DNA from: an uncultured Solirubrobacteraceae bacterium
GTDB lineage: Bacteria > Actinomycetota > Thermoleophilia > Solirubrobacterales > Solirubrobacteraceae
Reading direction: 5' to 3'
Assembly: GCA_964588985.1 (NCBI GenBank)
Contig: CAZPQW010000004.1
Location: forward strand, 64,001 to 128,000
DNA length: 64,000 nt
Shown: positions 39,396 through 49,182 of the stretch, piece by piece
How the letters are laid out: each line of letters begins with the position of its first letter
Position numbering within the stretch: the first letter of the stretch is position 1
Program-made: the position numbers and the translations under genes
Notes under the pieces: generated by a model
What the model was told of the DNA's origin: nothing
The model's input: only the letters and a program-made list of their open reading frames with translations
The model's database searches: none

Positions 39396-39468
39396 GCGGT
39401 GGTAGCTCAGTTGGTAGAGCGCAAGCTTCCCAAGCTTGAGGTCGCGGGTTCGACCCCCGTCCGCCGCT
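39396..39468 (+). tRNA. tRNA-Gly (CCC)
   Basis: Cloverleaf GCGGTGG/CCGCCGC, D arm GCTC/GAGC, anticodon arm CAAGC-TTCCCAA-GCTTG, T arm GCGGG-TTCGACC-CCCGT; CCA not encoded; TAAACT -10 upstream. Confidence 0.97.
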
Positions 39469-44721: not shown

Positions 44722-45510
44722 CTACCGCGCGCTCCTGGCTGGTTCCTCGGCGGCTTCCCGTCGAGGTGAATAGGGAAGTGCCCCACGGGGGGCACGGTCC
44801 TGCGCGCCGGCCGCCTGCTGGCCGGAGGCCGTGACGAGGAAGAACCCGATCAGCGCCAGCCACAGCCCGCCGGCGGCACCGGCCGTGAACTCCAGCGCCC
44901 CGAGGAAGATCATCAGGTAGCCGAAGCCGCGCCCGACGCTCGCGGCGGTCTGTGTAGCTGGACCGATGTCGCCGCTGCGACGCCACAGCAGCGAGCGCAG
45001 CACGCGGCCGCCGTCGAGCGGGAACGCTGGCAGCAGGTTGAAAACGAAGATCATCCCGTTGACGAGCACCTGGTATTCGACGAGCGCTCGAAGCATCGCG
45101 GGGGTCGAGGCGGGCAGTGCAACCAGGACGACGCCGAAGATCGAGGCGATCGCGGCTGTGACGGCGGGACCGGCAAGCGCATAGCGCAGCTCGTCGCCGG
45201 GGTCGTGGGCCTCTCCGCGCATGCGCGAGACGCCGCCGAGTAGCCACAGGTCGATCCCCTCCACTTCGATGCCGTGCCTGCGCGCGACGATCGCGTGGCC
45301 GAACTCGTGGGCGAGGATGCTCGCGAACAGCAGCAGCGCGCTCGCGAGGCCCAGCGCGTAGGACGCCGCGGGGCTGATGCCGTTCACCACTTCCGGGAAG
45401 TACGAGTCCCCCAGCGACCACGTGATCAACGCGACGATCACGAGCCACCACGGGCTCACCCCGATCGGTATCCCGGCGATACGCGCTATGCGAAGACTGC
45501 GACCAGGCAC
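44722..45510 (-). CDS. Site-2 protease (M50), apparently lacking CBS domains
   Basis: HEFGH, LLGGVS, ALAGP, FNLLPAFPLDGGR; low-quality tail after QQAAGAQ. Confidence 0.8.
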   Translation of the reverse strand: MPGRSLRIARIAGIPIGVSPWWLVIVALITWSLGDSYFPEVVNGISPAASYALGLASALLLFASILAHEFGHAIVARRHGIEVEGIDLWLLGGVSRMRGEAHDPGDELRYALAGPAVTAAIASIFGVVLVALPASTPAMLRALVEYQVLVNGMIFVFNLLPAFPLDGGRVLRSLLWRRSGDIGPATQTAASVGRGFGYLMIFLGALEFTAGAAGGLWLALIGFFLVTASGQQAAGAQDRAPRGALPYSPRREAAEEPARSAR

Positions 45511-45639
45511 CCATCCACCGTAGACACGGCGAGCGTCCCGTTCATCAGTGCCTTTCACCTTGGCGATGCGTAGAAAACCCGCGTGAAGATCGAGGACTTG
45601 TCTCGAATTTCCGGGCTGCGACGGTGGTACGGTGAACGC

Positions 45640-45960
45640 ATGATCATCTCGACGATGAACGACCTGCCCGGCTATGAGATCGAGGAGGTCTACGGAGAGG
45701 TCTTCGGCCTCACGGTGCGCTCGCGCAACCTCGGCTCCCAGATCGGCGCGAGCCTGAAGTCGCTGGTCGGCGGCGAGCTGAAGGGGATGACGAAGATGCT
45801 CGCCGCGGGTCGCCAGGACGCGACCGAACGGTTGGTGGAGGAGGCGGGGGCGAAAGGCGCCAACGCGATCATCGCGTTTCGCTTCGACACCTCAGAGCTG
45901 GGCTCGGTGTGGACGGAGATCTGCGCTTACGGAACGGCGGTCAGGGCGCGCAAGCTCTGA
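45640..45960 (+). CDS. YbjQ/UPF0145 family protein
   Basis: MIISTMNDLPGYEI..GEVFGLTVRSRN..GGELKG..GANAII..AYGTAV. Confidence 0.9.
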   Translation: MIISTMNDLPGYEIEEVYGEVFGLTVRSRNLGSQIGASLKSLVGGELKGMTKMLAAGRQDATERLVEEAGAKGANAIIAFRFDTSELGSVWTEICAYGTAVRARKL

Positions 45961-45985: not shown

Positions 45986-47131
45986 GTGAGCACGCCGATC
46001 GACGGGCACTGCGCCCCCGAGTTCGCGCGGGTCCGGGAGGCGTTCGAGGCGAACTTCGCCGAGCGAGGCGAGCTCGGCGCGGCCGTGCACGTGATCGTCG
46101 CGGGCGAGACCGTCGTTGACCTGGTGGGCGGATGGGCCGACGAGGCTCGCACCCAGCCGTGGCGCCACGACACGATCGTGGGGGTCTACTCGGTCGGAAA
46201 GGCGATCCTCGCCCTGCTTGCGCTGCGGCTCGTCGAGGAGGGACGGCTCGCACTCGATCAGCCCGTCGCCGAGGTGTGGCCCGAGTTCGCCGTCGGCGGC
46301 AAGACAGGGGCCACGGTCGCGCACGCGCTCAGCCACCGCGCGGGCGTCCCCGCGATCCGCGAGACGCTCACCGACGAGGACCTGTTCGACTGGGAGCGGA
46401 TGGCCGGCGCGGTCGCGGCGACCGACGCGTGGTGGGCGCCGGGAGAGCGGGTGGTGTACCACACCAACACGTTTGGCCATCTCATCGGGGAGCTGATCCA
46501 TCGTGCGAGCGGCCAGATGCCGGGTGAGCGACTGCGAGCGATCGCCGAGCCGCTCGATGCGGACGTGTGGTTCGGTGTGCCGGTAGCTCAGCAGGACCGC
46601 TGCGCGGACGTGGTGTGGGCGCCTGCACAGCCGATGCCGACGATCGGCGCGTTCGACGCGCTCGAGGGCGATCTCCTGATGAACGCGCTGGCCCACTTCA
46701 ACCCGCCCGGCTACTCGTCGGTCGGCCTGGTCAACACGCCGGCGTGGCGCTCGTCGCAGATCGGCTCGACGAGCGGACACGCGTCGGCCTCTGGCATCGC
46801 ACGGATCTACGCCGCGCTGCTCGATCCCGGCCGTCTGCTCTCGCCCGAGCTGCTCGCCCACGCCACCGCCCCACGCGCCACCGGGCACTGTCCGATCCTC
46901 GGCGAGGAGGTCGCGTTCGGTCTCGGGTTCCAGCGCACCACCGCGCGCCGGCCGCTCGGGCCCAATGGCCGGAGCTTCGGCCACTTCGGCACCGGCGGCG
47001 CGCTCGGCTTCGCCGACCCCGATGCAGGCGTGGCGTTCGGCTACGCGATGAACCACGTCATTCCCCGCTGGCAGAGCACGCTCAACCGCACGCTCGTCGA
47101 CGCCGTGTACGCCTCGCTCGCGGCCCGCTGA
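45986..47131 (+). CDS. Serine hydrolase (class C beta-lactamase/esterase family)
   Basis: SVGK (SxxK), LSHRAG, YHTNTFG, FGHFGTGG..FADP. Confidence 0.88.
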   Translation: MSTPIDGHCAPEFARVREAFEANFAERGELGAAVHVIVAGETVVDLVGGWADEARTQPWRHDTIVGVYSVGKAILALLALRLVEEGRLALDQPVAEVWPEFAVGGKTGATVAHALSHRAGVPAIRETLTDEDLFDWERMAGAVAATDAWWAPGERVVYHTNTFGHLIGELIHRASGQMPGERLRAIAEPLDADVWFGVPVAQQDRCADVVWAPAQPMPTIGAFDALEGDLLMNALAHFNPPGYSSVGLVNTPAWRSSQIGSTSGHASASGIARIYAALLDPGRLLSPELLAHATAPRATGHCPILGEEVAFGLGFQRTTARRPLGPNGRSFGHFGTGGALGFADPDAGVAFGYAMNHVIPRWQSTLNRTLVDAVYASLAAR

Positions 47132-47210
47132 GCACATTTCTGCGGAAAATCCGGGGTGATCTTCTCGGGGGGTCTTGCGCGCCGGAGGAGCCGCTTGTTA
47201 GGTTGCATCC

Positions 47211-47330
47211 AGACGCGGAACCGAGCCGCAAAGAGCGAGGCCACCGAGGTGTGAGGCCGTGCCACCCAACCGATCGAGCCGCAAGGCGAGAGCGCGAGGG
47301 TTCCTCAAACGGCACGGGACCGCGTCTATT
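47211..47330 (+). ncRNA. Putative structured small RNA of unknown family
   Basis: TTGCGC-N18-TAGGTT promoter; closing stem AGACGCGG/CCGCGTCT; inner stem CCGTGCC/GGCACGG; two tandem-GA hairpins; ends in ATTT. Confidence 0.6.
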
Positions 47331-47348
47331 TCGTTAAGTTGACTCCGC

Positions 47349-48086
47349 ATGACCTCGCGGACTCATCGACATCGCGCCGCAGGTCTCGTGTTCCTGCTCG
47401 TGCTCGTGGTGGGAGCGTCCGCGATCGCCGACGTGCGCGGTGGCTCCTCGGGCGCTCGGGTGAGCGCAAGCGTCGGCAAGTCTCGTACCACGGCGGTACG
47501 AGCGGAGGTATCGCATCGCGTGAGGCGCGCTCACGCTCATCAGGCGGGACCGTCTCCCGGCTCGCTGCCTCAGACTCACGCGTATCCGTCCGGTAGCAGC
47601 GCGCAGTTCAAGTCGCTGATGGCGTCTCTGTGGGCCGGCATCTCCACGGGCTCGGTGGCTCCCGCGCTGAGGGCCTTCTTCCCGAGGGGCGCGTACGCTC
47701 AGCTGAAGGCGATTCCGTCGGCGAGCTCGGACTGGACCAACCGGCTCGTTCACGACTACGGCCTGGACATCGCCGTGGCTCACAAGCTGCTCGGCCGCGA
47801 CGCCGCGAACGCCCAGCTCGTCAAGGTCAACGTGCAGTCCCGCTACGGCCACTGGGTTCCACCTGGCGTTTGTTACAACAGCATCGGCTACTACGAGATG
47901 CCCAACGCGCGCGTCGTCTACCGCGAGGCTGGCCATACCCGCTCGTTTGGCATCGCGTCGATGATCTCCTGGCGAGGGGTCTGGTACGTCGTCCACCTCG
48001 GCGCGATCCTCCGGTCGACCGATTCGGGAAGAGTGGACGAACCGGCGTCTGGAGCCGGCGTTTCGGTGTACTCGGGAACCTGTTAG
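47349..48086 (+). CDS. Hypothetical exported protein
   Basis: N-terminal hydrophobic helix, linker, globular domain (FFPRGAYAQLK..WVPPGVCYNSIGY..SMISWRGVWYVVHLG); TAAGTT 8 nt before ATG. Confidence 0.7.
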   Translation: MTSRTHRHRAAGLVFLLVLVVGASAIADVRGGSSGARVSASVGKSRTTAVRAEVSHRVRRAHAHQAGPSPGSLPQTHAYPSGSSAQFKSLMASLWAGISTGSVAPALRAFFPRGAYAQLKAIPSASSDWTNRLVHDYGLDIAVAHKLLGRDAANAQLVKVNVQSRYGHWVPPGVCYNSIGYYEMPNARVVYREAGHTRSFGIASMISWRGVWYVVHLGAILRSTDSGRVDEPASGAGVSVYSGTC

Positions 48087-48090
48087 CGCG

Positions 48091-49182
48091 TCACGCGAGA
48101 GCAGCAACCCGCTCCACCGTGGCGATCGGCGAGGTTGCGCTCGTGCCCTGCAGCACGACCTTGAGGGCGCCGGTGTTGGCGGCGTCGGCGAACGTGTCGT
48201 ACGCGGACATCGTGTCGCCGAGCGCGAAGCGGTGTGTGGCGAACAACGATGGGTCGAGGCGACCGCTCGAGATCAGCCGCATCAGCTGCGGGATGCTGAA
48301 CGTGTCGACGAGCCCAGTGGTGATGGTGACGTCGCGGATCCACAGCTTCTCCAGATGCAGGGTCGCTGACTGGCCGTGCAGGCCGATGTTCGCGACCCGC
48401 CCGCCCGGACGGATCAGCTCCGTGGCCAGCTCGAAGGTCTGCGGCACGCCGACAGCCTCGAAGGCGGCGTCGGCACCGAGACCGTCTGTCATCTCCATGA
48501 CCAACGCCACGGGGTCTTCGCTGCTGTTGTTGATCGTGATGTCAGCGCCGAACCTGCGAGCACTCTCCAGCCGGCTGTCGGCGAGATCGATCGCGACGAT
48601 CCTTCCGGGTGTGTAGAGCTTGGCGGTGAGGATCGCCGCGAGGCCGATCGGACCGGCGCCGACGATCGCGACCACATCTCCCGGTGAGACCATGCCGTTG
48701 AGCACGCCGACCTCGTAGGAGGTGGGGAGGATGTCGGCGAGGAACAGCACCTGCTCGTCGGTGAGCTGTGCGGGAACCTTGTAGACGGAGTTGTCGGCGA
48801 ACGGCACGCGCGCGTATTCCGCCTGCAGGCCGTCGATCAGATGGCCGAAGATCCAGCCTCCTCCGCCGAGGCACTGGCCGTAGCGGCCCTCCTTGCAGTA
48901 GCGGCAGCGCCCGCAGGAGCTTACGCACGACATCAGCACCCGGTCGCCTGGGACGACCGTGCTCACGCCGGCTCCCACCTCCTGCACCGTTCCCACGGCC
49001 TCGTGTCCGAGCACCGTGCCGGGCGTCGTCTCGGGGACGTTGCCTTTGAGGATGTGCAGATCGGTGCCGCAGATCGTCGAGGTGTCGATCCGCACGATCG
49101 CATCCGTGGGGTCGAGGATCGTGGGGTCGGCAATGGTGTCCCAGCCTCGTTCGCCGGGGCCGTGGTAGACGAGAGCCTTCAT
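48091..49182 (-). CDS. Zinc-dependent alcohol dehydrogenase
   Basis: ICGTDLH, GHEAVG, CGRCRYC..C, LADILPT, GAGPIG. Confidence 0.93.
   Translation of the reverse strand: MKALVYHGPGERGWDTIADPTILDPTDAIVRIDTSTICGTDLHILKGNVPETTPGTVLGHEAVGTVQEVGAGVSTVVPGDRVLMSCVSSCGRCRYCKEGRYGQCLGGGGWIFGHLIDGLQAEYARVPFADNSVYKVPAQLTDEQVLFLADILPTSYEVGVLNGMVSPGDVVAIVGAGPIGLAAILTAKLYTPGRIVAIDLADSRLESARRFGADITINNSSEDPVALVMEMTDGLGADAAFEAVGVPQTFELATELIRPGGRVANIGLHGQSATLHLEKLWIRDVTITTGLVDTFSIPQLMRLISSGRLDPSLFATHRFALGDTMSAYDTFADAANTGALKVVLQGTSATSPIATVERVAALA

Follow-up and report, generated by a model that had tools for sequence, protein, structure and literature searches.

An uncatalogued structured small RNA with a pseudoknotted junction, conserved in the actinobacterial order Solirubrobacterales

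The window considered here is a stretch of 64,000 nucleotides (nt) from an uncultured Solirubrobacteraceae bacterium (GenBank assembly GCA_964588985.1, contig CAZPQW010000004.1, positions 64,001 to 128,000). Judged by comparison with related sequences, its positions 47211-47335, read on the + strand, are a genuine conserved structured RNA gene of about 120 nt, which matches a covariance model at 129.6 bits from its predicted start to the end of a T-rich tail. This small RNA (sRNA) is conserved across one actinobacterial order, Solirubrobacterales, as homology searches show, with nothing convincing beyond that order in the samples searched. It appears to form an uncatalogued family among structured bacterial sRNAs, belonging to no Rfam 15 family. 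Solirubrobacterales are soil actinobacteria that are rarely cultured, and we know of no order-specific RNAs described for them. The new family displays clear covariation and counts at least 86 aligned members and 97 model matches in 92 loci, two sets that may overlap.

The predicted fold, well supported by the family alignment, consists of a closing stem P1-P2, a three-way junction, a hairpin P3, a variable hairpin P4 and a pseudoknot. The alignment used throughout, A4, contains 86 family members; it was fitted to the model, its sequences are related and its loop columns are out of register in some rows. Under the model structure 93.2% of 2841 cells are paired in A4, a proportion that falls to 79.9% after shuffling and to 30-43% once the partners are displaced by 1-3 columns. 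Changes on both sides are seen in 25 of the 34 pairs, and none of 500 shuffles reached any of five covariation measures.

Followed from its 5' end, the molecule would open with one strand of P1, (A)GACGCGG (AGACGCGG, 47211-47218), closed by its perfectly complementary partner CCGCGUC(U) (CCGCGTCT, 47320-47327) at the other extremity, both on the + strand, as are all elements of the fold. This pairing of the two ends, already proposed when the sequence was first read alone (we refer to that reading as the original prediction), holds in 100% of cells, and four of its seven pairs have two-sided changes. P2 follows, with CCGAGCCG(C) at 47221-47229 facing (A)CGGCACGG at 47309-47317; all nine of its pairs change on both sides and 87.3% of its cells are paired, the window copy having a mismatch of A47224 with A47314 within the helix. 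The unpaired junction strand J2/3, AAAGA (47230-47234), is nearly invariant in the alignments and leads into P3, where GCG-A-GGCC (47235-47242) pairs with GGCC-G-UGC (47255-47262) in 99.8% of cells. P3 carries a bulged A and belongs to the nearly invariant core; one of its G-C pairs switches to A-U in 19 of the 86 sequences. Its loop, ACCGAGGUGUGA (47243-47254), combines the 5' strand of the pseudoknot with a conserved UGYRA. The base of P4, made of ACCC (47264-47267) and GGGU (47298-47301), is paired in 92.4% of cells with two-sided changes in three of four pairs; an AACC/GGTT pairing noted originally stands to the extent that it overlaps this covarying base. Beyond it, the distal part of P4 (47268-47297) varies in length and in sequence while its tip helix covaries, the tip being GCC[GCAA]GGC (47278-47287) in the window and GGCC[UUCG]GGCC in most homologues.

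Between 47140 and 47340 the sequence contains, at the positions given, every string quoted in the original prediction. The fold just described departs in several respects from the one first imagined, which was built around twin hairpins with tandem GA mismatches and hence a two-site architecture. That architecture fails in the family alignment. The halves of the first tandem-GA hairpin (47221-47240) correspond to the 5' strands of two different helices, P2 and P3. The second (47274-47291) survives as the tip of P4, capped by its GCAA tetraloop, but its GA pairs are not conserved and P4 is variable. A CAC[CGAG]GTG hairpin and a stem of 7 base pairs (bp), CCGTGCC/GGCACGG, show no covariation in the family alignment either. 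Altogether, the five helices put forward at the time lack covariation, since 78.8% of their cells are paired, much as in shuffles (77.9%).

A pseudoknot had also been suspected, with CCUC as its 3' strand. It exists, but in another register: the 5' strand is GAGG, in the P3 loop (47246-47249), and not the TGAGG at 47252, while CCUC (47303-47306) comes after P4 and before P2 resumes with its 3' strand. Unique sequences with a 3' core other than CCUC tell the two registers apart, the TGAGG register pairing in none of 12 and the loop register in all 12. A register-free test yields at least 4 bp for each of the 54 unique combinations of loop and segment, with five Watson-Crick helix types (GAGG/CCUC, GGGG/CCCC, GGGA/UCCC, GGAG/CUCC and GAGA/UCUC) and one G-U variant; the length of the pseudoknot is 4-6 bp across the family. 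By contrast, cross-pairing loops with segments of a different 3' core gives at least 4 bp in 183 of 1118 cases only, and the observed pairing sum was reached by none of 2000 permutations. The fixed-column count of paired cells for the pseudoknot in A4 is only 75.9% because loop columns are out of register in some of its rows.

At the level of the family the two strands score differently: with the covariance model forward matches reach at least 52 bits, the same loci reversed at most 27.5 bits. The + strand fold of the lone window sequence beats chance only mildly (-52.7 kcal/mol, z -2.43, with 2 of 200 shuffles equally good), and the - strand of the region folds at z -1.95. Upstream of P1, the promoter recognized in the original prediction is a family trait: the 86 members listed keep it at a constant distance, ending 6-10 nt before P1. 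In the window the -35 element TTGCGC (47175-47180, +) is separated by an 18-nt spacer from the -10 element TAGGTT (47199-47204, +), which ends 6 nt before A47211. The equivalent place of the -35 element is occupied by TTGCAa or TTGACn in the 86 members listed; the -10 element is of the TAnnTT type in the window's family, and TCTACT, TTGAGT or TTCACT in a second family of the order. P1 is immediately followed by the T-rich tail ATTTCGTT (47328-47335, +), which begins with ATTT and is presumed to be an intrinsic termination tract. In the family as a whole, an average of 6.3 T is counted in the 12 nt that come after P1, where 1.8 would be expected; five T or more are found there in 76 of 86 members, as compared with 11 of 252 CGCGTC sites taken from these loci as controls, so that the T-rich end noted originally is well borne out. 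Because a conserved promoter precedes P1 and a T-rich tail comes directly after it, the sRNA looks like its own small transcription unit, and we infer a transcription start at P1 or immediately ahead of it and an end within the T-tract.

How widely is this RNA distributed? BLAST matches at E ≤6e-13 are present in 34 of the 37 genomes of the window's genus, the three genomes without a match being 64-89% complete, and 13 genomes of the genus have two copies or more (2-4). Partial BLAST matches occur in three genomes from other families. The window's own genome harbours a second copy, outside the window (G000:C4:13891-14008). At the level of the order, a covariance model built from 34 sRNA copies (R1) detects the sRNA in 47 of 151 sampled genomes, and in 41 of 128 among the high-quality ones. 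Broken down by the labels of the sampled families, this amounts to 17/39 in the window's family (f1), 27/39 in the second family (f3), 1/18 in f2, 1/1 in f6, 0/38 in f4 and 0/15 in f5; one unpublished genome (G093), which is counted in the order tally of a PPOX-like protein discussed below and probably in that of R1 as well, touches the f2 counts only. The 47 positive genomes have 1-2 copies each, multiple or tandem copies being found in eight of them. Related genomes provide both homologues and, with two-sided changes in 25 of 34 pairs, the covariation expected of a structured RNA.

Outside the order the picture is different. In a sample of the class, R1 found no match among the 125 genomes of other families. 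A second model built from the 86 family members (R2) gave three weak matches in other orders, at 27.5-31.5 bits, and one weak match among 150 genomes of the phylum; the weak out-of-order matches in G261, G280 and G353 are unconvincing. G274, from another order of the same class, contains an isolated candidate homologue (L231:1501-1632, 31.5 bits) with a TAGAAT -10 element 6 nt upstream of P1, the sequence AAGAGCG, a hairpin like P3 and a pseudoknot GGAGA/UCUCC; a T-tail is lacking, and 40 other genomes of its family gave no counterpart. An exact-pattern scan covering 185,579 species genomes returned at least 125 stretches. The model confirmed 92 of the first 100 pattern loci from these stretches, with 97 matches, and among the matches listed the confirmed loci L102-L180 are labelled Solirubrobacterales, Solirubrobacteraceae, Thermoleophilaceae, Solirubrobacter sp., or come under the generic labels 'Actinomycetes' and 'uncultured bacterium' given to metagenome-assembled genomes (MAGs). 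The eight pattern loci rejected by the model were treated as chance: seven come from Rhizobium (two), Nannocystaceae, a Chloroflexia MAG, Microbacterium, Pyrinomonadaceae and a Pseudomonadota MAG, and the eighth is L191. Scans of plasmid and phage sequences gave no match to the sRNA, and a single pattern match on a viral contig (L240) failed the covariance model. Tandem duplications of the sRNA are seen at L017 (copies 272 nt apart), L087 (243 nt), L115, L139, L143, L152 and L164; at L017 and L087 every tandem copy comes with its own promoter and T-tail. From the coordinates of the records, L154/L155 and L177/L178 are apparently close copies on opposite strands.

Comparison with known families leaves the sRNA without an assignment. 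Rfam 15 (4227 models), applied to the whole window at gathering thresholds, returns only a transfer RNA (tRNA) at 39396. Applied to 47100-47420 with E up to 10, it gives only a 10-bit chance match to a long non-coding RNA on the other strand, and with six divergent members and nine further loci it gives nothing at the sRNA. ARAGORN finds only the same tRNA-Gly at 39396 between 38000 and 49000, and the sRNA is neither a tRNA nor a transfer-messenger RNA (tmRNA). In the accessible portions of the literature on small and structured RNAs of the order, and on RNA motifs in the smpB-ssrA intergenic region, no description of such an RNA was found; together with the silence of Rfam 15, this agrees with the original proposal of an undescribed structured RNA.

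A few systems deserve comparison all the same. Orphan sRNAs such as the raiA motif are independently transcribed, compact and pseudoknotted, with strong covariation and no conserved downstream gene. The sRNA resembles RNAs of this type in its own promoter, its pseudoknot, its covariation and its variable downstream gene; it differs from raiA in being shorter (about 120 nt), in being found in one order only, and in ending with a closing helix and then a T-tract, and there is no raiA match at E up to 10. The aptamers of THF-I and SAM-I/IV riboswitches have a P1-closed junction, a loop pseudoknot and conserved nucleotides at the junction. The likeness extends to the junction and the loop pseudoknot, whereas the sRNA has no Rfam match, no conserved regulated gene and no expression platform, and its neighbour is often convergent. 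Like 5S ribosomal RNA, it is some 120 nt long with a three-way junction closed by an end helix; unlike it, it has a pseudoknot, its own promoter, a terminator-like tail and a patchy distribution, and Rfam gives no 5S match. Bacterial Y RNA and 6S RNA are abundant protein-binding sRNAs with a terminal closing stem. No Y RNA match is found in Rfam at the locus, and the window's genome yielded no gene for the TROVE protein Ro60/Rsr, which usually lies near that of a Y RNA. As for 6S RNA, it is a rod with a central bubble while covariation draws the sRNA as a junction with a pseudoknot, and the Rfam 6S model (RF00013) has no match at the locus or anywhere in the genome. The signal recognition particle RNA is present elsewhere in the same genome. 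Finally, tmRNA (the ssrA product) is, as the sRNA seems to be, encoded by a stable-RNA-type gene with paired 5' and 3' ends, and the two are often adjacent; they are not homologous, the Rfam tmRNA model and ARAGORN being blank at the sRNA.

This adjacency brings us to genomic context. Flanking open reading frames (ORFs) were picked by length and by GC content at third codon positions, a heuristic and not an annotation, and 124 of 166 picks were scanned against Pfam. No downstream gene is common to the sRNA copies among these 124 ORFs, and the ORFs downstream of secondary copies have no homology among them. With its own promoter, its T-tail and no conserved downstream gene, the sRNA conforms to the stand-alone reading of the original prediction. 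In the window's family, which has 52 copies, 30 lie 35-208 nt upstream of the tmRNA gene on the same strand, seven have one intervening ORF and one is divergent. The local order is smpB, a gene for an M50 peptidase on the opposite strand, the sRNA and ssrA. In this family the main or ancestral copy is that of the smpB-ssrA locus, and the window copy is a second copy; the smpB-ssrA position may be a matter of synteny only. In five genomes without the sRNA, tmRNA is present, and even unfiltered searches revealed no divergent sRNA copy next to it.

In the window's own genome, the other copy (locus L002, G000:C4:12391-15508) follows smpB (+, Pfam SmpB) and the M50 peptidase (-); the sRNA (+) is separated by an 84-nt gap from the tmRNA (+), which is complete (G000:C4:14102-14464, model positions 1-374). 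The gene order of L002 is found again throughout the genus, as well as in further genera of the family. A -10-like GCTAnAnTG lies 18-21 nt before the mature 5' end GGGGACGAC of tmRNA at L002:1660-1711 and in 29 other loci, and the tmRNA genes of the family have no recognizable -35 element. This -10 is kept even where, in one genome, the gap to the T-tail of the sRNA is 35 nt. A predicted membrane protein of no known family, conserved in one genus, is encoded there between sRNA and tmRNA (L053:1689-2432 and L095:2744-3721, two members with 48% identity). Tyrosine integrase or serine recombinase genes are found just beyond tmRNA at L032, L033, L045 and L048; genomic islands frequently insert at ssrA. 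They were discarded as a clue to mobility of the sRNA, since the tmRNA gene sits between the sRNA and them.

The second family shows another arrangement, with an ORF convergent to the sRNA within 100 nt downstream in 24 of 33 copies and a co-oriented one in a single copy, according to the heuristic picks. The usual neighbour there, on either side and in either orientation, encodes a PPOX-like protein of 321 residues. Proteins of this kind (321-326 residues) have a sub-threshold similarity to the F420-dependent PPOX-class family TIGR03618 (25 bits for a cut-off of 79), with examples at L072:452-1414 (+) and L069:1634-2599 (-); in some genomes the 3' end of the gene overlaps the 3' end of the sRNA on the opposite strand.

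The explanation that we favour, and consider probable though far from assured, is that of a stand-alone structured sRNA of about 120 nt acting in trans, its nearly invariant core binding a conserved partner. Synthesis would be constitutive, from a promoter of the housekeeping type, starting at P1 or just before it, and the P1/P2 stem with its U-tract would end transcription; because termination would take place there, the RNA would be released closed and resistant to nucleases. With the ends locked in P1, the core, made of the J2/3 AAAGA, P3 with its bulged A, the loop UGYRA and the pseudoknot, would create a surface or a pocket where a conserved partner in the cell could bind, either a protein or, possibly, a small ligand. 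The action would not go through the neighbouring gene.

To be sure, a number of observations weigh against this view. The sRNA was not found in 104 of the 151 order genomes, and is therefore dispensable. A transcript of about 120 nt is a prediction from sequence, and a strict consensus scanner run on 46900-47700 called neither promoter nor terminator at the window copy. Since fold z-score, consensus scan and Rfam are all weak or null, the lone sequence decides nothing and the comparative data do; there, the covariation statistics overstate independence because A4 was fitted to the model and its sequences are related. A stem enclosing about 90 nt would make an unusual terminator, and termination there is putative. 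Partners are wanting as well. Searches of the window's genome, 95.9% complete, detected neither TROVE/Ro60 (PF05731) nor Hfq nor ProQ. The PPOX-like protein, found in 61 of 151 order genomes, had to be rejected as a partner: it occurs in 16 of 18 genomes of f2 and 18 of 38 of f4, where the sRNA is rare or not found, and is not found under the sRNA-positive labels g1 (0/3) and g17 (0/6), so that in the absence of co-occurrence across the order its adjacency is synteny only. Finally, most copies in the window's family are co-oriented just upstream of tmRNA or of an ORF, which leaves room for a role in cis.

Such a role would be that of a riboswitch or attenuator, in which the aptamer, folded with or without a ligand, lets P1 and the U-tract terminate transcription while unfolding allows read-through into tmRNA or, in the window, into an ORF of 245 residues. 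The aptamer-like architecture, with conserved nucleotides gathered at the junction and the pseudoknot, the T-tract directly after P1, the position of so many copies shortly before tmRNA and the end of the window copy 13 nt before the ATG at 47349 all speak for it. Yet convergent ORFs face most copies of the second family, downstream genes share no family, tmRNA has its own -10 some 20 nt before its mature 5' end, and neither a separate expression platform nor a covarying alternative pairing is apparent. Classical riboswitches are leaders of functionally coherent genes; what lies downstream here is tmRNA, unrelated ORFs or convergent genes. Since different genes follow the sRNA, often in convergent orientation, this is not a classical riboswitch, and regulation in cis at large seems unlikely to us. 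We would give the same low credence to a base-pairing regulator, where the fold would be a scaffold and terminator for an exposed AAAGA or UGYRA that pairs with mRNAs. Its own promoter and U-tail would suit such a regulator, as would the occurrence of several or tandem copies, in the genus (13 of 37 genomes) as in the order (8 of its 47 positive genomes), many base-pairing sRNA families being multicopy; against it, the exposed conserved stretches measure merely 5-6 nt, the paired and pseudoknotted parts are the most conserved, and neither Hfq nor ProQ was detected in the window's genome.

That the sRNA might be a small self-cleaving or otherwise catalytic RNA is suggested by its compact pseudoknotted core with invariant unpaired purines, by its varying gene context and by its several copies in some genomes. 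We deem it highly improbable: relaxing E to 10 brings up no ribozyme family of Rfam 15, a conserved position that could serve for cleavage was not identified, and, with the promoter adjoining P1 on one side and the terminator on the other, no flanking transcript would be left for cleavage. Least credible of all, to the point of being almost negligible, is a mobile repeat, such as a miniature inverted-repeat transposable element or a repetitive extragenic palindrome, or a recombination site, in place of an RNA gene. P1 can indeed be read as an 8-bp terminal inverted repeat, some genomes have 2-4 copies, and integrase or recombinase genes lie downstream of several of them. However, the intervening tmRNA accounts for these integrases, the two ends of the unit are unlike, one preceded by a promoter and the other followed by a T-tail, and compensatory changes maintain helices and pseudoknot on one strand only. 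Genomes of the genus have 1-4 copies each and the 47 positive ones of the order sample 1-2; with no match in plasmids or phages besides, and a viral-contig match that failed the model, the check for repeat elements raised in the original prediction comes out against them.

The stand-alone, trans-acting sRNA can also be extended in a bolder direction, which we regard as speculative and rather doubtful: the invariant pseudoknotted junction would be a new kind of module for sensing or binding, either a free-sRNA aptamer or the RNA subunit of a ribonucleoprotein, its home at smpB-ssrA would reflect a real link with trans-translation, and the closing helix would double as terminator. Binding of a ligand or a protein by the core would make this family the founder of a new class of regulatory RNA. 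Otherwise, it would still be useful in annotation, guarding against ORF miscalls across the intergenic region. In any case, the fold is defined well enough to serve as a basis for probing and determining the structure and for pulling down partners. The family stands out by two unusual features, a closing helix around the entire RNA with a U-tract straight after it, and, in one family, a main copy residing inside the smpB-ssrA locus.

The neighbourhood of the window copy has its own composition. Far upstream lies the gene of tRNA-Gly (CCC) at 39396-39468 (+), called by Rfam and ARAGORN alike. An M50 peptidase gene (44722-45558, -) is located 1.6 kb upstream of the sRNA; a segmental duplication of the smpB locus was considered and rejected, the two M50 proteins being 33% identical over 130 residues only. 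Then come the genes of a YbjQ-family protein (45583-45960, +) and of a beta-lactamase-family protein (45986-47131, +), the latter directly preceding the sRNA. On the other side, the ATG of the 245-residue ORF (47349-48086, +) is found 13 nt after the tail; its product has a hydrophobic N-terminus and falls in no Pfam or NCBIfam family. A TAAGTT at 47335-47340, read as a -10 element in the original prediction, would make this ORF leaderless. It is followed by a zinc alcohol dehydrogenase gene on the opposite strand (48091-49182, -).

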